Both the position numbers and the translations under genes were made by a program. This document shows, piece after piece, positions 2,860 through 18,727 of a stretch of DNA of 32,000 bases. The notes below the pieces were generated by a model. The model made no database searches, had not been told where the DNA came from, and was given only the letters and a program-made list of their open reading frames with translations. The stretch is from assembly GCA_001695645.1 (NCBI GenBank), contig LVZN01000001.1, positions 150,001-182,000 on the forward strand. The letters run 5' to 3'. The stretch is from Erysipelotrichaceae bacterium MTC7 (lineage in GTDB: Bacteria > Bacillota_I > Bacilli_A > Erysipelotrichales > Erysipelotrichaceae). The stretch's first letter is position 1, and every line of letters starts with the position of its first letter.

Positions 2860-3918
2860 CTAGTTAGTCCCACCATTTGAAATTGTTGGTTCTTCAGACA
2901 CTTTAATAGTTCCATCTTTGATTCCAGCTACAGCACTGTCTAATGCTTTTGTAATTGCTTCAGATAAGTTTGGATTTTCTTCTGGGTATCCAACTCCATC
3001 AAGGTCAAAGTTGTAAGTGATTGTTTCTGCTTTGAAATCACCATCTAGTACTTGTTTACAAGCATCGTAAGTTGAAACATCAACACGTTTTAGTGCAGAA
3101 GTTAAGATTACAGAATCTCCATTTGCCATTTTTCCATCTTCGTATTGGTCACGGTCAACTCCAACTGTGAATACTTTATCGCCTTTTTCCGTACGTTCTT
3201 GTGCTTCTTGAATCACACCGTTTCCTGCATTACCAGCAGCAGCATAGATAACTTTCGCTCCAGCATCGTATTGTTTAGCAGCTAGTGTTTTCGCTTTTCC
3301 TGCATCATCGTATGATCCAGCGTAGTCAACGTAAATTTTTACATCTGGGTTAGCAGCTAATGCTCCTTGTTCGAAACCAGCTTGGAATGCTCCGATAACT
3401 GGTCCTTCCATACCACCGATAAATCCAACACTGTCAGATCCTAATTCTTTAGCTTCCATTGCAGCAGCCATACCAGCTAAGTATGAACCTTCGTGAGCAG
3501 CAAATACAGCAGATTGTACGTTGTCAGCTTCAACAACAGCATCGATAATTAAGAATTTCGTTTCTGGGAATTGTGCAGATACATCTTTCATTGCATCTTC
3601 AAATAAGTATCCAGCAGCAACTACTAGATCATATCCATCTTCAGATAATTGTGTAAGGTTACTTACGTAATCAGCTTCTGCTTTTGATTCTAGGTATGTA
3701 ATACAGTCATCACCTAATTTTTCATCTTCAGCGAATTTTTTAATTCCTTCCCAAGAACCTTGGTTGAATGAACGGTCGTCAATACCACCCATATCAGTTA
3801 CGAAACCAATTTTTACCTTACATGCTGAATCATCTTTTTTGTCATCTGATGATCCACCACAAGCCGTTAATCCAAAGACTAACATTGCACACAGTGCGAA
3901 AATACTAAATTTTTTCAT
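2860..3918 (-). CDS. BMP-family (PnrA/Med/TmpC-like) substrate-binding lipoprotein, probable nucleoside receptor
   Basis: Signal peptide plus lipobox FGLTAC-GGSS. Periplasmic-binding-protein-like sequence rich in FIGG/AAGNAGNG motifs typical of basic membrane protein family. SD ACGGAGGTAAAG. Confidence 0.88.
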   Translation of the reverse strand: MKKFSIFALCAMLVFGLTACGGSSDDKKDDSACKVKIGFVTDMGGIDDRSFNQGSWEGIKKFAEDEKLGDDCITYLESKAEADYVSNLTQLSEDGYDLVVAAGYLFEDAMKDVSAQFPETKFLIIDAVVEADNVQSAVFAAHEGSYLAGMAAAMEAKELGSDSVGFIGGMEGPVIGAFQAGFEQGALAANPDVKIYVDYAGSYDDAGKAKTLAAKQYDAGAKVIYAAAGNAGNGVIQEAQERTEKGDKVFTVGVDRDQYEDGKMANGDSVILTSALKRVDVSTYDACKQVLDGDFKAETITYNFDLDGVGYPEENPNLSEAITKALDSAVAGIKDGTIKVSEEPTISNGGTN

Positions 3919-3964: not shown

Positions 3965-4807
3965 TTATACGACAATTACAGGCCCTTGTCTATTAAGACA
4001 AGCAATTTTCTTATACTTTATTGCATCCGCTTCACTTACCGTCTGCGAACCAAAGACAGCCACCCCCTCGGCACGAACACCATAGGGTCGATAACGCAAT
4101 AACTTATAAGGAATGTCTCCATTTAGATGTTTACTTACATAATCGACGGTACACGTGTTTTGTCGATCTTGACTTGGCAATAACACCGTGCGTACTTCGA
4201 CCAATTTGTCTACGCTTTGTAAGTACTCTAAGTTGGCAAGGACTACCTTATTGTCATATCTGCAAAGCGTTTGATGAAATGCTTCATCAGCTGCTTTTAC
4301 ATCTAACATAACACCATCACTTACTTCAAGTAGGTCGGTATAATCTTGAAAATCATACGCACCATTGCTATCAATAAGACAGGTTAAACCCAATTTTTTC
4401 ACTTCCACAAAAAGATCGTGGATAAAGTCTGCATAATTCATACACTCTCCACCACTCACCGTGATTCCACTGATGAATAGGGCGTGTTGTTGAATGTAGG
4501 CAACCAGTTCTTGCACATCATACGTACGCACTTTCGGGGATGACATGTGCTTACATACGTTGATACAAGTATCGCAGTCGATACATTTTTTTGAATCCCA
4601 GAGAACTTTACCATCTACTTTCGTTAGTGCTTGGACTGGGCATGTCGGTATACAATCACCACAATTCACACAAACGTTAATTGTTTCTGGGTTGTGGCAA
4701 TACAAGCAACGAAATGGACACGATTGAAAGAATATCGTTGTTCGATTTCCTGGTCCATCTACATTGGAAAAGGGGATAATTTTATTTACAAGTGCAGTTT
4801 TACTCAC
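3965..4807 (-). CDS. yjjW: Glycyl-radical enzyme activating protein, YjjW-like (radical SAM)
   Basis: CPFRCLYC (CX3CX2C) radical-SAM cluster after FSNVDGPGNR. Two extra ferredoxin-like clusters, CVNCGDCIPTCP and CIDCDTCINVC. SGGE motif. GTG start at 4807 overlaps the yjjI stop (GTGAGTAA). Confidence 0.85.
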   Translation of the reverse strand: MSKTALVNKIIPFSNVDGPGNRTTIFFQSCPFRCLYCHNPETINVCVNCGDCIPTCPVQALTKVDGKVLWDSKKCIDCDTCINVCKHMSSPKVRTYDVQELVAYIQQHALFISGITVSGGECMNYADFIHDLFVEVKKLGLTCLIDSNGAYDFQDYTDLLEVSDGVMLDVKAADEAFHQTLCRYDNKVVLANLEYLQSVDKLVEVRTVLLPSQDRQNTCTVDYVSKHLNGDIPYKLLRYRPYGVRAEGVAVFGSQTVSEADAIKYKKIACLNRQGPVIVV

Positions 4808-6299
4808 TGTAAATCTTGCGACTTAACGCTTTTCCTTTTTCCTCTGCACCTTTTCCGAACATTGTTACTTGGTTAAGACTTGCTTCATTGTTTCTTAATT
4901 TTTCTATTTCACTACGTTTCACTAAATAACCAGTGACACGCACAACATCATTGTCAGCATTGTATCCTGAGAAATAACGCATTCCACTTGCAAGTGCGCC
5001 TTTGATAATTTGTAACACAGCTTCTGGTGTTTTAACCCAAGTTTCGTCAAACTTGAAGATATCACCAACACCGGAAACAAAGTGTTTGTGCATTTTTGCT
5101 TCTAGTAAAATATGATCACGTAATTCAGGTTCACTACCAATTGGAATTCTAACTCCTGGCGAGTTTTCCGTTCCATCACTATCAATACCTACTTGTGCAT
5201 GCATGACATAGGTATCATCACACGCTTGGCAATACACACCTTTATGGTTAACGACAAGTTCATGCATCGTATCAAGAATTTGTAGACCAAGCTCTGTAGC
5301 TGCTTCATTATGTCCGTAACCTTTGTTTGGATCATCAATGTTCAATAAATGGTTCACACATTCGGCAAGTCCAACTACACCAAACATTCCTGTGAAGTTC
5401 TCTTGTTTAACGAATCCTTCTTTAACCAAGAAGTTGCTTTTGAAGAAACTTGATTCTTCCACAATGTAACGTATTCTTTGATCCATGTTTGTAAGCATGA
5501 TATTCACGTAGTTTGGTAATACATTTGTGATAAAGTCATTTGCATCTTTCGCTTTTAAAGAAGCATTGTACAAACGAATTCTTGGCAAGGTGTAACCTCC
5601 ACCACCAACGCGTAGGGAGTTGTAACAACTTACGATTGCATATTCACTTGAACCAGCATCTTTTTGATACATCACATCATTTGCAAAACTAGGTTTACTT
5701 GTTGCTAACATACATTTAACACTAGCGACACCAAATTCATCACTTGTCTTTTCGGGGTTGTAAAGTAATGTAATGTTTGGAATTGCAAGTTGCATTTCTT
5801 CTGTCAGCTCCAAGATGATGCGACTTGTACGATTGTCTTCTGGACCGATGTTTGCATGAACGAAGCTATCCGTCAACGTACTATCGATGTGTTGTAAGAA
5901 TAAACGTAACGCTTTTTTTGTTTCGTTTGCATTAACATCAAATGGTGCAAGTAATTTTGAGAAGTTTCCTAAGTATACTGGAAACGATGTAATACTTGGA
6001 ACATGTTTGTAAAATATCAACAAGGTGTTCGTAGCTTCCCAAATATCTGTTGGTGGTTCTAAGTTCAAAAACTTACAACCTTTTTCCATTAATAAACTGT
6101 AGTCAGGCACAATGTACCGTGGGCGGTATGGTGCAAGACCCTCACCTAAATCGCATAGAATTTCATCGTTCAATGCAGCAATCCACTCAGGATCACGCGC
6201 AAGTGAATCATCCATGTTTTCCGCTAATCGAGCAAGTGACAACACTTGTTGTTCATACGTTAAGGTTGGATCACTAATAATATCGTGAACTTTGCTCAT
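4800..6299 (-). CDS. yjjI: YjjI-family glycyl radical enzyme (DUF3029), substrate unknown
   Basis: 499 aa. C-terminal glycyl radical fingerprint DVVRVTGYLV about 40 aa from the end. Size and pairing with a YjjW-type activase match my recollection of the E. coli YjjI/YjjW pair. SD AAGGAG 12 nt after the deoB stop. Confidence 0.75.
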   Translation of the reverse strand: MSKVHDIISDPTLTYEQQVLSLARLAENMDDSLARDPEWIAALNDEILCDLGEGLAPYRPRYIVPDYSLLMEKGCKFLNLEPPTDIWEATNTLLIFYKHVPSITSFPVYLGNFSKLLAPFDVNANETKKALRLFLQHIDSTLTDSFVHANIGPEDNRTSRIILELTEEMQLAIPNITLLYNPEKTSDEFGVASVKCMLATSKPSFANDVMYQKDAGSSEYAIVSCYNSLRVGGGGYTLPRIRLYNASLKAKDANDFITNVLPNYVNIMLTNMDQRIRYIVEESSFFKSNFLVKEGFVKQENFTGMFGVVGLAECVNHLLNIDDPNKGYGHNEAATELGLQILDTMHELVVNHKGVYCQACDDTYVMHAQVGIDSDGTENSPGVRIPIGSEPELRDHILLEAKMHKHFVSGVGDIFKFDETWVKTPEAVLQIIKGALASGMRYFSGYNADNDVVRVTGYLVKRSEIEKLRNNEASLNQVTMFGKGAEEKGKALSRKIYSE

Positions 6300-6311
6300 A
6301 TGTTTCTCCTT

Positions 6312-7511
6312 CTACTTGTCAAGTTGACTCGTAATTTGTGCTAAGACACTTTGACCGATGGTACCTTCTGGCATAGCAACATCAAAGTTATCACAGATCG
6401 TTGCCCCTAAATTCGCAAACGTTGTGAATTCTGGAATATGGTTTCCTGATTTCATGTTTTTGCTGTAGGCGATACATGGTACCGTTTCTTTGGTATGATC
6501 ACTACCTTCATAAGTTGGATCGTTACCGTGGTCGGCTGTGATAATCACAAGATCATCATCTTTCATTCGTTCAATGAAGATACTTAGTTTTTCATCGAAA
6601 CTTTCCAATTCTTTTCCATAACCAACTGGGTTTCTACGATGACCCCAAAGGGCATCAAAATCCACTAGGTTTGTGAAACAGAATCCGGTAAAATCTTTTT
6701 CTAACAATTCAATGGTTTGTTCCATTCCATGAACGGAACTTTTACTTTTGTATGCTTCTGTAATTCCTTCACCATCGAAGATATCTTTAATTTTCCCAAC
6801 ACTGATCACATCATAGTCATTGGCTTTTAAAGCATCCAATGCGGTCTTTCCGTATGGTTTTAATGCATAGTCATGGCGATTTGCCGTACGTACAAATTCA
6901 CCTTTTTTGCTTCCTGTGTATGGACGAGCAATTACTCGACCCACCATCCATTCTGGACGCATCGTTAATTCACGTGCGATTTCACAGTATTTGTATAATG
7001 TTTCAACTCCCATGGTTTCTTCATTCCCACAAATTTGGAGAACTGAATCCGCTGAAGTATAAACAATCAAGACACCGTTGTTAATTTCATCTTCACCAAA
7101 TTCATCTAGAATTTCAGTTCCTGATGCACTTTTGTTCCCAACGATTTTACGCCCCGTGCGTTTTTCTAATTCATCGATAAGTTCTTTTGGAAATCCGGTT
7201 TCGGTAAAGGTTTTAAATGGAGTTTTAATTTCCAATCCCATCATTTCCCAGTGACCGGTCATCGTGTCTTTTCCAACACTTGCTTCTTTCATTTTTGTGT
7301 ACACCGCTTTAGGTTCTGCAACTGCAGGGACGCTAGCTAGCGGCGTAAGATTTGCCATTCCTAAACTTTGTAAGGTTGGAATGTTGAAGTTTGGCATGTG
7401 ATCAGCAATATGTCCAAGGGTGTTTGCCCCTTTGTCATAACCTGGTAGATCATCTGCCCCAACGCCTAATGAATCGACGACGATAGTAAATATACGTTTA
7501 TAGTTTTTCAT
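6312..7511 (-). CDS. deoB: Phosphopentomutase
   Basis: 399 aa. Alkaline-phosphatase-superfamily motifs ([25 protein letters not shown]) characteristic of DeoB. SD AAGGAG. Confidence 0.92.
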
Positions 7512-7522
7512 TGAAATACTCC

Positions 7523-8239
7523 TTATAGTTTAATTGCACTCTCCAAAGCGACTTCCATCATTTCATTGAATGAGTTCTGTCTCTGCTGAGCAGTTGTTAC
7601 TTCGTGTGTAACAAGCGAATCAGAGATTGTTAGTAAACAAGCAGCTTTCTTTCCTAAGATTTCTGCGTTGTGGAACAATGCAAAGCTTTCCATTTCAACA
7701 CATACACAACCGTGTTTTTCATAGAACTCAACATGTCCATCCACATTGTCTTCGTGATAGAACACATCACTTGAGTGAATGGTATTTTCGTGTACCGTTT
7801 TTCCAGTCTTTGTTGCTGTATCTGCAATCAAAGCATTTAGTTCTCGGTTTGGTTCAATTGTATCTTTCGTGTATCCTGATTGTGCTAAGGCAAACGTTGA
7901 TTCACTCCATGCATCTTTTGCTAAAACAAGATCGAATAATTTCAACTGATCTGTATATGCTCCAGCGCTACCGATTCGAATGATAGCTTCCACATCAAAG
8001 AATTTAAATAACTCATAGGAGTAAATTCCGATGCTTGGCATTCCCATTCCAGAACCCATAACACTAATTTCCTTTCCTTTGTATGTTCCTGTAAAGCCGA
8101 ACATATTTCTAACACTATTAAATTGTTTTACATCCTCTAAGTATGTATCTGCGATATACTTAGCACGCAAAGGATCTCCCGGCATCAGAACAACTTTAGC
8201 AATTTGTCCCTTTTCTGCTTGAATGTGTGGTGTTGCCAT
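7523..8239 (-). CDS. deoD: Purine nucleoside phosphorylase, DeoD type
   Basis: 238 aa. [30 protein letters not shown] and VEMES motifs typical of hexameric PNP. SD GAGGAGG. Confidence 0.92.
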
Positions 8240-8266
8240 ATTATTTCCTCCTCATGACAAGCGATT

Positions 8267-8295
8267 TTTATAAATTGTGACGCTTGTCTTTACAA
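8267..8295 (-). promoter_or_regulatory. Candidate sigma-A promoter of the deoD-deoB-yjjI-yjjW-ABC operon
   Basis: Minus strand has TTGTAA (8295-8290), a 17-nt spacer, then TATAAA (8272-8267), about 28 nt upstream of the deoD ATG. It is overlapped by ACAAGC/GCTTGT repeats. Confidence 0.4.
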
Positions 8296-8357
8296 GCACA
8301 CTATAACTTGTTGTATAATAAGAAAAAAGGCCACTTGTCCCTTTTTTGGAGAAAAAT

Positions 8358-9095
8358 ATGAAATTTTTATTAGATCAAATCGACCATTTATTACAACCGG
8401 ATACCTATGCATTTCTTTCGACGTTTTTGGAACATTGTCCTAAGCAGATACTCATGCGCATGGATATTGTCCATTATCCCAAAGGGCATATCATCATGCA
8501 TACAGGTGATCCCAACAAAGATGTATTCATTTTAATCAAAGGGGGAATCGAAGGTGTGGACGAATCCGTTCCAACCATCCCTTACACATTCAGTGATTTG
8601 CGTCCGATTGATGTACTTGGTGATTACGAGTTGTTTAGCAACGTTGCTACTCGTTATGTATCCTTGCGAACAACAACCGAAACCACGTGTTTACGCTTAA
8701 ACGCACAGGACTATCTCAGTTGGATGAAAACGGATATTCACGCATTGTTTATGCGTATGGGAATGCTAATGCTTGTGCTTGGTCAAGAAACACAGTTCCA
8801 TCGACAGTTCTTATTTCTTGATAACGAAACGCGACTTTTGCTTTTTCTACTTGAACAAGTGCAAAAGAAAGCGAAACAGTTTCCTTATAAAATTGATGCC
8901 AGTCGTGAACAGATCGCTTCGCGAATTGCCAGTAGCATTCGCACACTCAACCGCACCTTATCCAAACTGGAAGATATGAACATGATCAGTCGATCTCACG
9001 GAAAAATCATCATCTCCAAGAATCAAAGTAAACGAATTGAAGCAGCTATCCATCAAGCGGAAGCAGATTTAAAATTAACTTTGCCAAAAATATAA
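8358..9095 (+). CDS. Crp/Fnr-family transcriptional regulator (cNMP-binding-like domain plus C-terminal HTH)
   Basis: N-terminal beta-barrel-like region (GDPNKDVFILIKGGIEG). C-terminal HTH (SREQIASRIASSIRTLNRTLSKLED). I prefer the ATG at 8358 (GGAG 6 nt upstream) over the TTG at 8346. No N-terminal Cys cluster, so not a classical FNR. Confidence 0.75.
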   Translation: MKFLLDQIDHLLQPDTYAFLSTFLEHCPKQILMRMDIVHYPKGHIIMHTGDPNKDVFILIKGGIEGVDESVPTIPYTFSDLRPIDVLGDYELFSNVATRYVSLRTTTETTCLRLNAQDYLSWMKTDIHALFMRMGMLMLVLGQETQFHRQFLFLDNETRLLLFLLEQVQKKAKQFPYKIDASREQIASRIASSIRTLNRTLSKLEDMNMISRSHGKIIISKNQSKRIEAAIHQAEADLKLTLPKI

Positions 9096-9923: not shown

Positions 9924-12449
9924 ATGAAACAAAAAATCGACGTAACCGGAATGACATGTAGTTCTTGTGCTGCACATGTTGAAAAAGCGGTGAAAAAACT
10001 GCCAGGCACAAAAGAAGCAAATGTTAACTTGATGCAAAACAAGCTTGTCATTGACTATGACCCAGAAAAGACAAGCCAAAGTGATATCAACAAAGCAATC
10101 GAAGATGCTGGTTATGGCATAAAGCAAGATGTACAAAGTAAAGAGGGCGACAACCAATTTGCCAAAGAAGCAAAACAAGCCAAACAAAAACTTTGGATAT
10201 CTGTCGTCTTGTTAGTCATCCTAATGTACATTTCTATGGGTAGTATGATTGGTTTACCACTTCCATCCTTTCTTGATGGTTTGCACAATGCAATAACCTT
10301 TGCAATGGTGCAGTTCTTGCTTACCTTAATCATATTGAGTATGCACGCACATTACTTCACCAATGGATTTAAAGCATTATTCCACCGTGCACCAACGATG
10401 GATTCACTAATTGCCCTTGGTAGTAGTGCCGCATTACTTTATGGTATATATGCCATCATCATGATGGGACAAGGTCTTGCTAACCAAGACATGCATATGG
10501 TACACAACTATCACATGGATTTGTATTTTGAGAGTGCAGCAATGATCGTTACACTAATTTCTGTAGGTAAATACTTAGAAACACGTTCCAAAGGAAGAAC
10601 GAATGACGCCATTCAAAAACTTATGGATTTAACACCAAAGACCGCATTTGTCTTAAAAGATGGTCAAGTGGTCGAAGTTGCCATTGAAGATGTACAAAAA
10701 GATGATCTTCTCATCGTAAAAACTGGAGCAAGCATTCCCGTTGATGGTTTGATCGTTGAAGGAAACGGAACCTTTGATGAAGCCTTAATCACCGGAGAAA
10801 GTATTCCCGTTGAAAAACACGAACAAGATAAAGTCATCGGTGGAACTATCCTGGTTTCTGGATACATTCAAATGCAAGCAACGAAGATTGGTGAAGACAC
10901 GACCATTGCGAAGATCATTCAATTGGTTGAAGATGCAAACTCTTCAAAAGCACCAATAGCAAAACTTGCAGATCAAGTAAGTGCCGTATTTGTTCCCATT
11001 GTAATCGTGATTGCAACCGTAGCGACATTCACTTGGTTACTACTTGGATATGATCTTAGTTTCTCTTTATCCATTGGAATTGCTGTACTTATCATCAGTT
11101 GTCCTTGTGCTTTAGGATTGGCAACCCCAACAGCCATTATGGTTGCAACTGGTAAGGGTGCCCAGCTTGGTATCTTATTTAAAAATGCAGAAAGTTTAGA
11201 ACAAGTTGGTAAAATGGATACCATTGTACTAGACAAAACCGGAACCTTAACCAAAGGAAAACCAGAAGTTACCGATGTGATTAGCGACAATGAAACACAA
11301 CTATTGACCATCGCCTATGCTATGGAGCATAAAAGTGAACATCCCTTAGCTAAGGCGATTGTGAACTATGCAAGCGACAAGGAAAAAGCTGATTTCACCA
11401 TGGATACGTTTGAACAAGTTGCTGGTCAAGGAATTCAAGCAAGCAAAGATCAAACCATCTATTTTGCAGGAAATGCGAAAATGATGGAAATCAACAACAT
11501 TGATATTCATTCTTATGCACAAAGTGCAACCCAGTTTGCTAGCGAAGGAAAAACGGTACTCTATTTTGCACAAGATGTAAAAGCAATGGGTATGATTGCA
11601 CTTGCAGATGTGTTAAAAGATAGTAGCATCGATGCGATTGATGCACTTAAACAGCTCGGTAAAGAAGTTGTCTTGTTAACTGGTGACAATAAGCAAACCG
11701 CTGCAGCCATTTCACATAAAGCGCATATTGATACCGTAATCGCTGAAGTGTTACCTGAAGATAAAGAACGTTATGTGAAAGAATTACAAGCACAAGGAAA
11801 ACAGGTTGCTATGGTTGGTGATGGAATTAACGATGCTCCAGCACTTGCAAGAGCCAACGTAGGAATTGCCATTGGTGCAGGAACCGAGATCGCCATGGAG
11901 AGTGCGGATGTCGTGCTTATGCATAGTGATTTGATGGATGTTGCCACAAGTATTCAATTAAGCAAAGCAACCATTCGCAATATTAAACAAAACTTATTTT
12001 GGGCATTCTTCTACAATGCAATTGGAATTCCCTTAGCCGCTGGACTATTCTATCCGGCATTCCAAGTGAAACTAAACCCAATGTTTGGTTCAGCAGCCAT
12101 GAGTTTATCAAGTTTATTCGTTGTTAGTAACGCTTTACGCTTACGTTTCTTTAAGCCAACCTATACAAGTATAAAAAAAGCGCCACAAACAACGGAAACA
12201 AAAGTTATCAATGAAACAGAAAAGAAAGGAGGATTACCTATGAACAAAGTAATCCATATTAACGGTATGATGTGTGCCAACTGTGAAAAACACGTCAACA
12301 ATGCACTAAACGCAATTGATGGAGTAGAAGCTAAAGTTGATTTAGCAAACAACCTTGCCAATGTAACATTAGCTCAAGATGTTGATGATTCAACCCTAAC
12401 AAAAGCAGTTACGGATGCAGGTTATGAAGTTACTTCCATTGAAGGTTAA
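9924..12449 (+). CDS. copA: Copper-translocating P1B-type ATPase with N-terminal and C-terminal HMA domains
   Basis: GMTCSSC N-terminal HMA, TGES, SCPCALG (CPC), DKTGT, GDGINDAP. A second HMA (GMMCANC) occupies the last 69 aa. Confidence 0.93.
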   Translation: MKQKIDVTGMTCSSCAAHVEKAVKKLPGTKEANVNLMQNKLVIDYDPEKTSQSDINKAIEDAGYGIKQDVQSKEGDNQFAKEAKQAKQKLWISVVLLVILMYISMGSMIGLPLPSFLDGLHNAITFAMVQFLLTLIILSMHAHYFTNGFKALFHRAPTMDSLIALGSSAALLYGIYAIIMMGQGLANQDMHMVHNYHMDLYFESAAMIVTLISVGKYLETRSKGRTNDAIQKLMDLTPKTAFVLKDGQVVEVAIEDVQKDDLLIVKTGASIPVDGLIVEGNGTFDEALITGESIPVEKHEQDKVIGGTILVSGYIQMQATKIGEDTTIAKIIQLVEDANSSKAPIAKLADQVSAVFVPIVIVIATVATFTWLLLGYDLSFSLSIGIAVLIISCPCALGLATPTAIMVATGKGAQLGILFKNAESLEQVGKMDTIVLDKTGTLTKGKPEVTDVISDNETQLLTIAYAMEHKSEHPLAKAIVNYASDKEKADFTMDTFEQVAGQGIQASKDQTIYFAGNAKMMEINNIDIHSYAQSATQFASEGKTVLYFAQDVKAMGMIALADVLKDSSIDAIDALKQLGKEVVLLTGDNKQTAAAISHKAHIDTVIAEVLPEDKERYVKELQAQGKQVAMVGDGINDAPALARANVGIAIGAGTEIAMESADVVLMHSDLMDVATSIQLSKATIRNIKQNLFWAFFYNAIGIPLAAGLFYPAFQVKLNPMFGSAAMSLSSLFVVSNALRLRFFKPTYTSIKKAPQTTETKVINETEKKGGLPMNKVIHINGMMCANCEKHVNNALNAIDGVEAKVDLANNLANVTLAQDVDDSTLTKAVTDAGYEVTSIEG

Positions 12450-15871: not shown

Positions 15872-16108
15872 TTACATTCCTTCATGCATCGTTCGATTGA
15901 TGACGTCATCTTGTTGTTCTTTGCTTAACTTATTAAAGTTAACTGCATAACCAGAAACACGGATGGTCAATTGAGGATAACGTTCAGGGTGTTTTTGTGC
16001 ATCAAGTAATGTTTCACGCGTAAACACGTTCACATTCAAATGGTGTCCTCCACTTTCTGTGTAACCATCAATCATCGTAACAAGATTATCCACACGATCA
16101 TTTTTCAT
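15872..16108 (-). CDS. grcA: Stand-alone glycyl-radical domain protein (GrcA/YfiD-like PFL spare part), 78 aa
   Basis: [54 protein letters not shown] is nearly collinear with the C-terminal radical domain of pyruvate formate-lyase. It has its own SD AAGGAGG and ATG. Confidence 0.85.
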
Positions 16109-16139
16109 AGATTACCTCCTTCATAAACACAAATATTAC

Positions 16140-16994
16140 TTACAATTCTTTAAAATATTGAATCGCTATCGAACCAATTCCCGTGTGCACACCTACCACA
16201 CTGACAAGTTTAATCAGTTGATAACTTGCATTTGGAAACTGACCTTTACACATTTCCATAAACTTTTGTCCAAGCTCTTCTGCTTTTACATGTGTTACGG
16301 TAATGTTGTAATTATCACCTAACCCTGGTATTTCTTTTTTCATAATGGCCAAGGTTTCATCAAGTGCTTTACTCATTGTTCGCACTTTTTCTTTAACGTC
16401 GACTTTTCCACTTGTTCTTTTATTGATTTCAAGGATTGGCTTAATCTTTAAAAATCCACCAAGTGTTGCAGCTAATGGTGTTAAACGTCCACCACGACGC
16501 ATATGTTGTAAATCATCAGGAATAATGAGCGTATCTGTCGTATCACAAATATCACTAAGAATTTGCATAATTTCATCAATTGATTTTCCTTGTTCGTAAA
16601 GTTCTTTTGCTCTTACGACCATATATCCTTCAACGACAGCAGTTACATGGTTATCAAATCCATAAAAGATCAGTCCAACTTGTTTGGCTACCATTTCCAT
16701 GGCATCCATCGTTCCACTTAACCCTTTACAAATTGGGACACAAAAGACTGCTTCATATCCATCTGCTTTTAGTTTTGTAAAAAGCTCTTCAATCATACCA
16801 ACTGGTGCAAGTGATGTTTTTAACACTTTGTGTTGTTCCATCAACTCGTTCACTTGATCGACATTGATATCTTCATTTTCTAAATATGCGTGATTTCCTT
16901 CTGAAATCTGTAAAGGGACACTGTATACACCACGTGTAGCAGCTTCTTTTACGGTCCATCCAGTTCCACTATCTGTTACAAATGCAATTTTCAT
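16140..16994 (-). CDS. DegV-family (FakB-like) fatty-acid-binding protein, paralog 3
   Basis: MKIAFVTDSG..., LKTSLAP, RGGRLTPLAA..LKIKPIL, HTGIGSIAIQY motifs of the DegV/EDD fold. Confidence 0.88.
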   Translation of the reverse strand: MKIAFVTDSGTGWTVKEAATRGVYSVPLQISEGNHAYLENEDINVDQVNELMEQHKVLKTSLAPVGMIEELFTKLKADGYEAVFCVPICKGLSGTMDAMEMVAKQVGLIFYGFDNHVTAVVEGYMVVRAKELYEQGKSIDEIMQILSDICDTTDTLIIPDDLQHMRRGGRLTPLAATLGGFLKIKPILEINKRTSGKVDVKEKVRTMSKALDETLAIMKKEIPGLGDNYNITVTHVKAEELGQKFMEMCKGQFPNASYQLIKLVSVVGVHTGIGSIAIQYFKEL

Positions 16995-17004
16995 TCATCA
17001 TCAC

Positions 17005-17853
17005 CTAAACTTTCTTAACGTATTGTAGACCAACTGCTCCTGTTCCTGTGTGAGCCGCAATTACAGGTGCAAGTAAGCCAAATATTTTTTGATCTGTATC
17101 CACTGCATCAAAATATAAATCTTTCATCATTTGTGCAGATTCATCCGCATTCACATGGAGAATGGCAATTACGTAGTTATCATCAATCCCATGCGCTAAA
17201 AATGTATCAACCGCTTGTTTAATCGCTTTTGACATCGTTCTTACTTTGGCAAATTGATCAACCTTTCCCCCACTTGATTCATTCAGTTTCAAAATTGGTT
17301 TGATTTTTAACATTCCTCCAAGTTTTGCAGCAACGGGTGTAAGTCGCCCTCCTGCTGCTAAGTGATCTAAGTTTTCAACAATCAACAACGTATCACTATC
17401 TTGAATCGACGCTTCCAAACGTTTGATAATATCTTCAAGTGCGACACCCTCATCAACTAAGCGTTTTGCACTTTCTGCAATGTATAGTTGCATATATGCT
17501 GTTGTATAAATTTCAACACAACTAATTGGTAGACCTACGTTATCCGCAGCAAGTTTTACTGCTTGCATCGTTCCTGAGATTCCAGCACTTAATGGCACAA
17601 AAATCAAATGTTCATAACCATCTGCTTTCATTTGTTCAAGCATTTCTTCGACCAATCCAATGGGTGGCAAACTTGTTTTTAGCATCTTACCATCTTCAAT
17701 CATTTGAAAAATTTGTTCGGTTGTTGTATCCACCCCATCCAAATAGACATTTTCATCATCAATGATTTGTAATGGTAAGAAATATAACCCTTTGGCTTCC
17801 ACCTGCTCTTTGTTTAAACCACACCCACTGTCGGTTAATACTGCAATTTTCAT
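17005..17853 (-). CDS. DegV-family (FakB-like) fatty-acid-binding protein, paralog 2
   Basis: MKIAVLTDSG, LKTSLPP, AGGRLTPVAA..LKIKPIL, HTGTGAVGLQY. Clearly paralogous to 16140-16994. Confidence 0.88.
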   Translation of the reverse strand: MKIAVLTDSGCGLNKEQVEAKGLYFLPLQIIDDENVYLDGVDTTTEQIFQMIEDGKMLKTSLPPIGLVEEMLEQMKADGYEHLIFVPLSAGISGTMQAVKLAADNVGLPISCVEIYTTAYMQLYIAESAKRLVDEGVALEDIIKRLEASIQDSDTLLIVENLDHLAAGGRLTPVAAKLGGMLKIKPILKLNESSGGKVDQFAKVRTMSKAIKQAVDTFLAHGIDDNYVIAILHVNADESAQMMKDLYFDAVDTDQKIFGLLAPVIAAHTGTGAVGLQYVKKV

Positions 17854-17869
17854 GTTTGTTTATTCTCCT

Positions 17870-18727
17870 CTAATTTGTTTTCAATGTTGTTTGTACAGCC
17901 ACACAGCCTAGTCCCCCATGACAAGTTAAGACTGTTGGTAATTCTATGATTTCACATGTAATATCATCAAAGTATGCTTTTGCTATTTTCTCAACTTTTT
18001 GTGCTCCACTATAGTTGTTTGCATGTAAAATGTATACTTTATGCGTTAAGGCAGTCACATTGATACTTTTCAGTTTATCGACTGCTTCTGAAATCAGTTT
18101 TGTCTCCGTACGAGCAACTGCAAACTTATCGACAACACTACCATCTTCCTTTAAATATAGAAGAATTTTTATACGAAGTAAAGAAGCAACGTTTGCCGCA
18201 ATTGGGGAGATTCTTCCACCACGTTTTAGCTGCGTCAAACTCTCTGGATAGAGAAATGAAAAACTGTTTTTGCACTTCAAATCAATGGTTTTTAAGATTT
18301 CATCGATTGTTTTATCTTCATCCGCCATTTGTTTAGCCGTTTTTACACAATCATAAATTGGCGAACCCACACTACGTGTATCAATAATGTAAACATTATC
18401 CATACCAAGATCTTCTTTAACCATGTGATAGGTATGGTTCGCCCCACTTAATGAAGACGAACAAGTAAACACAAGAATTGCTTCATAATCTTTGCTTTTC
18501 CATTCTTCCATTCGTTGTGTTACATAACCAATACTTGGTTGGGATGTTGTTGGCACAACCCCATTTTCAAGTTCTCGATATAAGGTTGGTTTATCAATAT
18601 CAATTAAATCTTTAAATTCACGGTCGTTGATAATGACACTAAGTGGCATCAACTCAACACCTAAGGCATCAGCCATTTCGAAATCCATGGCACTTGTTGT
18701 ATCACATACAATTAAATAGTTTTTCAT
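17870..18727 (-). CDS. DegV-family (FakB-like) fatty-acid-binding protein, paralog 1 (more divergent)
   Basis: IVCDTTSAM, PTTSQPS, RGGRISPIAA..LRIK, HGGLGCVAVQ. Confidence 0.85.
   Translation of the reverse strand: MKNYLIVCDTTSAMDFEMADALGVELMPLSVIINDREFKDLIDIDKPTLYRELENGVVPTTSQPSIGYVTQRMEEWKSKDYEAILVFTCSSSLSGANHTYHMVKEDLGMDNVYIIDTRSVGSPIYDCVKTAKQMADEDKTIDEILKTIDLKCKNSFSFLYPESLTQLKRGGRISPIAANVASLLRIKILLYLKEDGSVVDKFAVARTETKLISEAVDKLKSINVTALTHKVYILHANNYSGAQKVEKIAKAYFDDITCEIIELPTVLTCHGGLGCVAVQTTLKTN

Follow-up and report, generated by a model that had tools for sequence, protein, structure and literature searches.

The YjjI and YjjW proteins of Escherichia coli (b4380 and b4379) are recognised as a glycyl radical enzyme and its activase, and their overlapping genes lie directly beside, and divergent from, the deoCABD operon, with CRP chromatin immunoprecipitation (ChIP) peaks within the yjjI/deoC intergenic region. 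No substrate or function is assigned to either protein in the searchable literature, whose coverage stops short of subscription-only papers, and an August 2026 preprint still terms YjjI uncharacterised; in the same study a radical probe labelled Gly465, the predicted radical glycine of E. coli YjjI, in living cells, which is indirect evidence for a glycyl radical in the protein (bioRxiv 10.64898/2026.08.13.742689). In E. coli the two genes appear among those listed as FNR-activated (PMC2634741), and in Yersinia intermedia anaerobic conditions induce them (PMC3792023). Here we describe a translationally coupled yjjI-yjjW pair in a 32,000-nucleotide (nt) stretch of DNA from Erysipelotrichaceae bacterium MTC7 (contig LVZN01000001.1, positions 150,001–182,000; hereafter the window). 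The pair belongs to the same known, uncharacterised families, sits inside a run of nucleoside uptake and phosphorolysis genes, and is one instance of a linkage that recurs across several YjjI clades. This gene context leads us to favor, by a modest balance, a nucleoside or a nucleoside-derived pentose or pentose phosphate as the substrate of YjjI.

The window pair resembles that of E. coli in that both adjoin deo genes, the two YjjI proteins are 39% identical and share the S-C-Y-N and RVTGY motifs, and the two genes overlap. It differs in that the E. coli pair has no adjacent transporter, whereas the window pair lies inside a co-directional run that starts with deoD and deoB and includes an ATP-binding cassette (ABC) importer of the BMP type. 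Compared with the deoCABD operon, the window has DeoD and DeoB orthologues scoring above the equivalog cut-offs and the same logic of phosphorolysis followed by a mutase, but lacks deoC and deoA and has the radical enzyme pair and the importer inserted. BMP/PnrA-type nucleoside importers include PnrA of Treponema and Streptococcus, NupNOPQ and RnsBACD, and the window shows their usual gene order, with a hairpin after the binding-protein gene. The adjacency in E. coli is visible in public annotation, and we found no account in the literature of a link to nucleoside transport and cleavage across clades.

Organization of the yjjI-yjjW locus

Open reading frame (ORF) calls place eight tightly spaced genes on the minus strand between positions 1 and 8239 of the window, running from deoD to the second permease of the importer. 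Lengths are in amino acids (aa).

7523–8239, minus: deoD, purine nucleoside phosphorylase, 238 aa (TIGR00107, 284.6 bits, cut-off 232; PF01048)
6312–7511, minus: deoB, phosphopentomutase, 399 aa (TIGR01696, 522.9 bits, cut-off 341; NF003766, 529.6 bits)
4800–6299, minus: yjjI, glycyl radical enzyme, 499 aa (TIGR04040, PF11230, AlphaFold model, Foldseek, conservation)
3965–4807, minus: yjjW, radical S-adenosylmethionine activase, 280 aa, GTG start (TIGR04041; PF04055 and Fer4 families)
2860–3918, minus: BMP/PnrA-family lipoprotein, substrate-binding protein of the importer, 352 aa (PF02608, 242 bits; lipobox LTAC)
2836–2815, minus: terminator-like or attenuator hairpin 3' of the BMP gene (9-pair stem followed by a T run)
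1229–2767, minus: ABC ATPase with two ABC domains, 512 aa (PF00005 twice, 173 bits)
127–1335, minus: ORF of ABC permease 1, BPD_transp_2 (PF02653, 156 bits; translation)
1–124, minus: ABC permease 2, N-terminus only, leaving the window at its left edge (ATG at 124–122)

The gene order and spacings of the original prediction are reproduced by the ORF coordinates, in that deoD and deoB are 11 nt apart, deoB and yjjI are 12 nt apart, the end of yjjI and the start of yjjW share 8 nt, and the BMP gene follows yjjW after 46 nt. A gap of 92 nt downstream of the BMP gene contains the hairpin, and a scan of the window finds this to be the sole strong terminator-like hairpin on that strand; hairpins are common at this place in ABC operons and transcription need not stop there. 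The true start of permease 1 is probably the ATG at 1236, which overlaps the ATPase stop. The N-terminus of permease 2 matches the second permease of Breznakia pachnodae (locus L002), the closest cultured relative, in which the run reads deoD-deoB-yjjI-yjjW-BMP-ATPase-permease-permease-cdd-deoA. Because that run extends to cdd and deoA, the window operon probably continues beyond the left edge, and cdd and deoA may lie just past it. Within the 32 kb of the window tblastn finds no homologue of DeoC, DeoA, NupC, Cdd or nucleoside hydrolase, and the earlier remark that deoC is missing from it thus stands.

The importer is represented by a complete set of components, with a PF02608 lipoprotein, a double ABC ATPase and two BPD_transp_2 permeases, and its ATPase clusters with the BMP-adjoining ATPases found in 36 of the loci surveyed below. 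NCBIfam gives a single match here, a weak one of 86 bits (cut-off 400) with the model of a putative B6 transporter. Family membership, together with the cdd, deoA and nucleoside hydrolase genes co-located in relatives, points to a nucleoside as the likely ligand.

Recurrent linkage to nucleoside genes

Gene neighborhoods were surveyed with 20-kb flanks in two samples. The first contains 80 loci, one per GTDB species, encoding YjjI proteins 55–77% identical to that of the window, and its ORFs were clustered after homology-weighted ORF selection; the second contains 80 metagenome contigs from other YjjI clades (39–51% identity to the window protein), 46 of these loci being at least 8 kb long. 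Longest-ORF calling had missed YjjI in 13 high-GC loci by choosing a longer antisense ORF instead. This ~543-aa ORF over high-GC yjjI genes (for example 5966–7609, minus, in L022 and 9950–11587, minus, in L030, with nine further loci) clusters across species, but we regard it as a shadow ORF artefact and not a gene.

Transporter genes are the most frequent partners of the pair. When the first sample is taken with the window and E. coli (82 loci), yjjW adjoins yjjI in 71 and is followed in frequency by the ABC ATPase in 36 loci, the BMP protein in 31 and the paired permeases in 27, with deoB, deoD, deoA and deoC in three or four loci each. A BMP gene lies within 10 kb of yjjI in 30 of the 80 species-level loci according to a phmmer census; as many contigs in the survey are short such fractions are lower bounds, and as the species within a sample are related the counts are not of independent events. 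Linkage specifically to deoB or deoD is rare, with just two cases among the 80 besides the window. A Pfam scan of the 125 genes directly flanking the pair likewise puts Bmp first (22 genes), followed by ABC_tran (11), PfkB (5) and ADP-ribosylglycohydrolase (4). Four of six PfkB neighbors examined are ribokinase-like, one of them scoring above the ribokinase equivalog cut-off; a RihC-like nucleoside hydrolase is present in six loci of the first sample, in which cytidine deaminase (cdd), uracil phosphoribosyltransferase (upp) and a PGM/PMM-family mutase also recur. Among the 46 longer loci of the second sample there are nine with BMP, five with nucleoside hydrolase and four with deo genes.

The variety of these architectures, with non-homologous transporters, is a stronger argument than the counts. 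At least six gene orders are scattered across the YjjI tree, with transporter genes placed co-directionally downstream of the pair, divergently upstream with a convergent BMP gene, or co-directionally upstream, and with three further arrangements that include hydrolase genes. In L167 (7131–13953) a single run reads yjjI-yjjW-cdd-deoA-deoC-deoB-deoD, with an 8-nt yjjI/yjjW overlap and then gaps of 7–17 nt save for 175 nt before deoC, and in L097 (4348–12354) the order is deoC-BMP-ATPase-permease-permease-yjjI-yjjW; these two are the clearest cases of deoC and yjjI in a shared operon. A Gram-negative context is seen in L141, where the order is PfkB-yjjI-yjjW-x-nucleoside hydrolase. Among the Enterobacterales, deoCABD is divergent from and adjacent to the pair in E. 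coli and Edwardsiella, and a NupC-family nucleoside transporter adjoins it in Edwardsiella and in the Morganellaceae-like L085; in Proteus neither deoCABD nor NupC is nearby. The adjacency in E. coli that the original prediction had mentioned is therefore real, with the two sets of genes divergent. In all, deoC is in the yjjI run or adjacent to it in five independent contexts (E. coli, Edwardsiella, L032, L097 and L167).

Nucleoside genes are also concentrated close to yjjI. Over both samples there are 64 within 5 kb of it and 13 at 5–10 kb, a position effect for which the binomial p, allowing for the DNA surveyed, is 7e-6. Linkage of the pair to genes of nucleoside uptake and catabolism is thus real and recurrent but facultative, and its usual form is a transporter and not deoB or deoD; what had been suggested as a conserved linkage holds in several YjjI clades and is not universal. 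The partners span two routes to pentose-5-phosphate, by phosphorylase and mutase or by hydrolase and ribokinase, and include enzymes of both purine (DeoD) and pyrimidine (DeoA, Cdd and Upp) nucleosides. Because both cleavage routes and both kinds of base are represented, the common denominator of the partners is the pentose and not a particular base.

Several further features of the surveyed loci are worth recording. Genes for RNase J, FtsK, MiaB, RNase Y and RecA near the pair reflect housekeeping synteny of one family, the Erysipelotrichaceae, and are rejected as functional partners. In the Anaerorhabdus loci L026, L067 and L074 the BMP gene directly follows yjjI with no yjjW between them, and the activase must be encoded elsewhere or be missing. 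Six loci (L028, L033, L042, L070, L075 and L078) have a conserved module beside yjjI-yjjW and the BMP transporter, consisting of a 646–676-aa ADP-ribosylglycohydrolase-family protein, the C-terminal half of which is unassigned, and a RihC-like nucleoside hydrolase, with a BD-FAE esterase as well in L070, L075 and L078; the composition of this module hints at a substrate that is a modified or ribosylated nucleoside. A 574-aa database protein (P0274) combines PF11230 (YjjI) with PF01791 (DeoC); the record probably results from a mis-call or a chimera across the divergent yjjI and deoC genes of E. coli.

Family features and predicted fold of YjjI

The 499-aa window protein matches TIGR04040 with 679.6 bits (cut-off 498.3) over residues 3–496 and PF11230 with 694 bits, and its closest named relative is from Breznakia (Erysipelotrichaceae), with 77% identity. 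The family is small, with 473 matches among 1.84 billion representative proteins and about 20 full-length clusters at 50% identity. It extends into Archaea, because in L091 (a contig of JGI 3300037598) a YjjI homologue with His at position 49 (P0129) and its activase sit among the archaeal translation genes eIF-1A, NMD3 and RIO1.

The glycyl-radical hallmarks are evident in the translation. The fingerprint VVRVTGYLV, expected about 40 aa from the C-terminus, contains Gly457, 42 residues before the end of the protein, and this position is Gly in 366 of 368 family members. The Cys loop is Ser224-Cys225-Tyr226-Asn227, in which Asn227 is present in all 368 members and Cys225 is invariant, although the conservation of Cys225 is partly circular as the set was partly selected on an SC[YF]N motif. 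Residues conserved in at least 98% of the members are Glu53, Arg61, Tyr62, His148, Asn175, Lys202, the four of the Cys loop, Arg240, Arg275, Glu294, His367, Gln369, Asp375, Arg384 and Arg454-x-Gly457-Tyr458; for Cys49 and for Met305 the figure is about 98%.

An AlphaFold model built with 23 sequences (predicted local distance difference test score, pLDDT, 88; predicted template-modeling score, pTM, 0.88) has a minimal glycyl-radical barrel as its predicted fold, with Cys225 at the turn of a beta-hairpin (strands 220–224 and 227–230), which is the classical Cys loop. Foldseek matches the barrel to those of NrdD, pyruvate formate-lyase (PFL) and PflD. Class III ribonucleotide reductases are the top matches in the Protein Data Bank (PDB), those of Prevotella copri, Streptococcus thermophilus, phage T4 and Thermotoga leading, with E-values down to 6e-15 and query template-modeling (TM) scores of 0.64–0.78; PflD/YbiW, proline-derivative dehydratases and PFL come next (E 1e-12 to 1e-9, TM 0.6–0.74). 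The structural preference for NrdD is real, if modest. The Pfam PFL-like and NRDD models tie on YjjI at 28.6 bits each, the first covering residues 156–233, immediately before the Cys loop, and the second residues 238–349. A search of the YjjI profile against all PDB chains returned no solved relative, its best matches (E 0.1–0.6) being YbiW and PFL near the Cys loop.

The G-Y-L context of the radical glycine had been taken as a sign of reductase-like chemistry, but the motif does not discriminate: the sequence is RVTGYLV in YjjI, RVCGYLG in E. coli NrdD and RVSGYAV in PFL and GrcA, so that features of both types are present in YjjI, and we do not use it as evidence. Independently of the motif, the Foldseek ranking of class III ribonucleotide reductases points the same way. 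NrdD is the best structural match, and YjjI shares with it the C-terminal glycyl radical in a G-Y-L context, a Cys at the tip of the finger loop and a suspected ribose-containing substrate, but several of its defining features are absent. YjjI is about 200 residues shorter and its genomic partners are catabolic; it has no Cys between residues 361 and 499, whereas E. coli NrdD has the zinc ribbon CYEC...CPKC (644–665); it has no ATP-cone match, and the Pfam NRDD match spans only 112 of the 562 profile positions. No NrdD model is among the NCBIfam matches of YjjI.

The PFL-like enzymes (PflB, PflD/YbiW, HypD, CutC and glycerol dehydratase) share the RVxGY motif and the ten-stranded barrel, but are 750–850 aa long compared with the ~500 aa of YjjI and have Ser, Cys or Ala before the radical glycine where YjjI has Thr. 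YjjI lacks the Cys-Cys pair of PFL (~760 aa), the corresponding loop being Ser224-Cys225-Tyr226-Asn227, and it lacks the Cys-x-Glu of the 1,2-eliminases (glycerol and propanediol dehydratase, CutC and HypD), having Cys-Tyr-Asn instead. As it lacks hallmarks of NrdD, PFL and the 1,2-eliminases alike, YjjI forms a minimal branch of its own within the superfamily, outside every characterised subfamily.

YjjW scores 347.5 bits against TIGR04041 (cut-off 250.2), and these family scores for both proteins agree with their earlier description as an enzyme/activase pair. The translation of the 280-aa protein contains the predicted CPFRCLYC (CX3CX2C) and two ferredoxin-like clusters of the CX2CX2CX3C form, CVNCGDCIPTCP and CIDCDTCINVC. 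The two-cluster ferredoxin insert is of the type typical of eliminase activases, and the best characterised match of YjjW is the hydroxyproline dehydratase activase (150 bits). It is not an NrdG-type activase, scoring 40 bits against TIGR02491 (NrdG; cut-off 126), and it is also below the cut-off of TIGR02495 (83 bits versus 131).

Proposed reaction, its alternatives and regulation

We propose that the operon serves anaerobic nucleoside utilisation. The BMP/PnrA-type ABC system would bring in nucleosides, DeoD would convert purine nucleosides to base and pentose-1-phosphate, and DeoB would shift the phosphate to C5. YjjW would set the glycyl radical on Gly457 using S-adenosylmethionine and a reduced [4Fe-4S] cluster, and YjjI would carry out an oxygen-sensitive radical step on the pentose of a nucleoside, a pentose-1-phosphate or a pentose-5-phosphate. 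The Gly457 radical would convert Cys225, at the Cys-loop tip, to a thiyl radical, which would take a ring hydrogen adjoining a hydroxyl; loss of the neighboring C-O bond would follow, in the manner of the first ribonucleotide reductase half-reaction. This type of reaction is suggested by the similarity of the predicted fold and by the lack of a further conserved partner enzyme. No other conserved protein of unknown function accompanies YjjI and YjjW in the neighborhoods, and because of this the product is expected to be usable by ordinary enzymes, the simplest candidate being a 2-deoxyribose compound within reach of DeoA or DeoD, DeoB and DeoC. The version that we prefer, although tentatively and as a proposition of low probability in itself, is the reductive 2-deoxygenation of ribose (as ribonucleoside, ribose-1-phosphate or ribose-5-phosphate) to the 2-deoxy form, with formate as the probable reductant. 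DeoC would then cleave ribonucleoside carbon to glyceraldehyde-3-phosphate and acetaldehyde. The suggestion that YjjI replaces DeoC is not favored, given the five contexts in which deoC accompanies yjjI.

A number of observations weigh against these proposals. About half of all loci (more than half in the first sample) have no nearby nucleoside gene, the pair stands alone in five of five distant lineages (Clostridium botulinum, Ferrimonas, Anoxybacter, Alkaliphilus and an archaeal contig), and deoC is absent from the window itself. Not every BMP protein binds nucleosides. A 2011 biclustering of E. coli and Salmonella expression data grouped yjjI with nar (nitrate/nitrite) genes and led to a guess of a role in nitrogen metabolism (PMC3228777). 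The TM-scores to PflD and PFL (0.71–0.74) nearly equal those to NrdD, and in an hhalign alignment of low confidence (probability 34%), in which equivalences with C175, M382 and C384 of E. coli NrdD are tentative, the essential C175 falls between Tyr62 and Ile63 of YjjI, with no Cys. Cys49 and Met305 could in principle be counterparts of the NrdD Cys/Met pair, in which C175 is on the first barrel strand and Met382 belongs to the formate-dependent enzymes, but the co-variation expected of such a pair was sought and not found, and in several deep lineages the residue at position 49 is His, Asp, Tyr or Ser, which weakens the reductase version. The codon for residue 49 is at about 6153–6155 of the window; because all of its replacements are potential proton donors, the substitution pattern suggests an acid/base and not a redox role for this residue. 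Cys49 does not track nucleoside linkage, being Cys in 16 of 16 linked and 60 of 65 unlinked loci, and is uninformative in this regard.

The alternative that survives best, although we think it unlikely, keeps the same class of substrate but has YjjI act as a redox-neutral lyase or dehydratase, in which radical 1,2-elimination of water or base yields a keto-deoxy pentose; diol dehydratases, choline trimethylamine-lyase and the anhydro-sugar-phosphate enzymes PflD/YbiW provide models. Cys225 is the lone strictly conserved cysteine, with Cys49 replaceable and no Cys aligned with C175 of NrdD, and YjjW is an activase of the eliminase type with its best characterised match to that of a dehydratase. 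PflD/YbiW, solved with anhydro-sugar phosphates bound, gives TM-scores of 0.71–0.74, and acid/base groups could be provided by Glu53 and by several His, Asp and Arg residues, all of them invariant. Set against these are the missing Cys-x-Glu signature of the eliminases, the position of NrdD ahead of the eliminases in Foldseek, and the lack in the neighborhoods of any conserved downstream enzyme for an unusual keto-deoxy product.

Less probable still is that the neighborhood is uninformative, YjjI acting on an unrelated small metabolite, such as one of central carbon or anaerobic nitrogen metabolism, and having no more than position or anaerobic regulation in common with deo and transporter genes of some lineages. 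The stand-alone pairs in the five distant lineages and in Proteus, the many loci of the first sample without nucleoside genes and the co-expression with nar genes are all consistent with this, and the location of the Erysipelotrichaceae pair in a conserved block with RNase J, FtsK and MiaB illustrates that synteny can be inherited. However, the linkage recurs with non-homologous transporters (BMP-ABC and NupC) and with alternative routes (phosphorylase and mutase, hydrolase and ribokinase), and no fewer than six gene orders are involved, in YjjI clades less than 60% identical; nucleoside genes cluster within 5 kb of yjjI, and the L167 run is tight.

We consider it very improbable that YjjI serves biosynthesis and not catabolism, as a minimal alternative form of class III ribonucleotide reductase, or as a nucleoside reductase, that supplies DNA precursors from salvaged ribonucleosides or ribonucleotides. 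NrdD does top the Foldseek matches, Pfam NRDD does match part of the protein and the gene is linked to nucleoside import, but YjjI has no zinc ribbon, ATP cone or specificity-site features, its activase is not of the NrdG type, E. coli also keeps nrdDG, the usual partners are catabolic (DeoC, DeoB and hydrolases), and the family is small and patchy. Action on the released nucleobase, by anaerobic ring reduction or cleavage, has equally little probability: the nearby phosphorylases, hydrolases, cdd and upp all handle bases, but purine and pyrimidine partners have only the pentose in common, the sugar-side DeoB, DeoC and ribokinase are equally linked, and to our knowledge no glycyl radical enzyme acts on heteroaromatic bases.

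Upstream of deoD there is a divergently transcribed regulator gene, separated from it by a short leader.

8240–8345, minus: intergenic leader/promoter region 5' of deoD (palindrome GCTTGTAAAGACAAGC; GGAGG ribosome-binding site)
8346–9095, plus: Crp/Fnr-family regulator, divergent from deoD (PF00027, cNMP-binding; PF13545, HTH_Crp_2)

A homologue of this regulator keeps the same divergent position in B. pachnodae (L002, 7194–7946, minus), and the protein is a candidate regulator of the operon; it has no FNR-like N-terminal cysteine cluster. A promoter scan of 8240–8345 returned no strong sigma-70 match. The palindrome GCTTGTAAAGACAAGC lies at 8281–8296, and a similar one, CTTGTC-N6-GACAAG, at 3985–4002 in the 3'-terminal part of yjjW. 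Each of the two may be a chance occurrence or may serve the divergent Crp-family regulator as an operator. Elsewhere in the window there are genes for rubrerythrin, pyruvate:ferredoxin oxidoreductase and a GrcA-like protein, and this gene content fits a strict or facultative anaerobe. The GrcA-like gene (15872–16108) codes for a 78-aa glycyl-radical spare-part protein that bears RVSGYAV, as noted in the original prediction, and is followed by three tandem DegV-family paralogues within 15872–18727.

YjjI is one of the last E. coli glycyl radical enzymes without a reaction, and its family is also present in gut Firmicutes, clostridia and archaea. With the census, the candidate substrates shrink from any anaerobic metabolite to a few purchasable nucleosides and pentose phosphates, which makes the proposal directly testable. 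RNA turnover is the source of much nucleoside carbon for gut anaerobes, and deoxygenation or dehydration of ribose by YjjI, if correct, would constitute a new branch of nucleoside and pentose fermentation and inform the question of how the chemistry of ribonucleotide reductase is related to that of glycyl radical enzymes at large. If YjjI is a 2-deoxygenase it would be a stripped-down relative of the anaerobic ribonucleotide reductase and the first catabolic use of this chemistry, providing a new entry route for pentoses by which fermenters would split RNA-derived ribose through DeoC while disposing of formate or reducing power.

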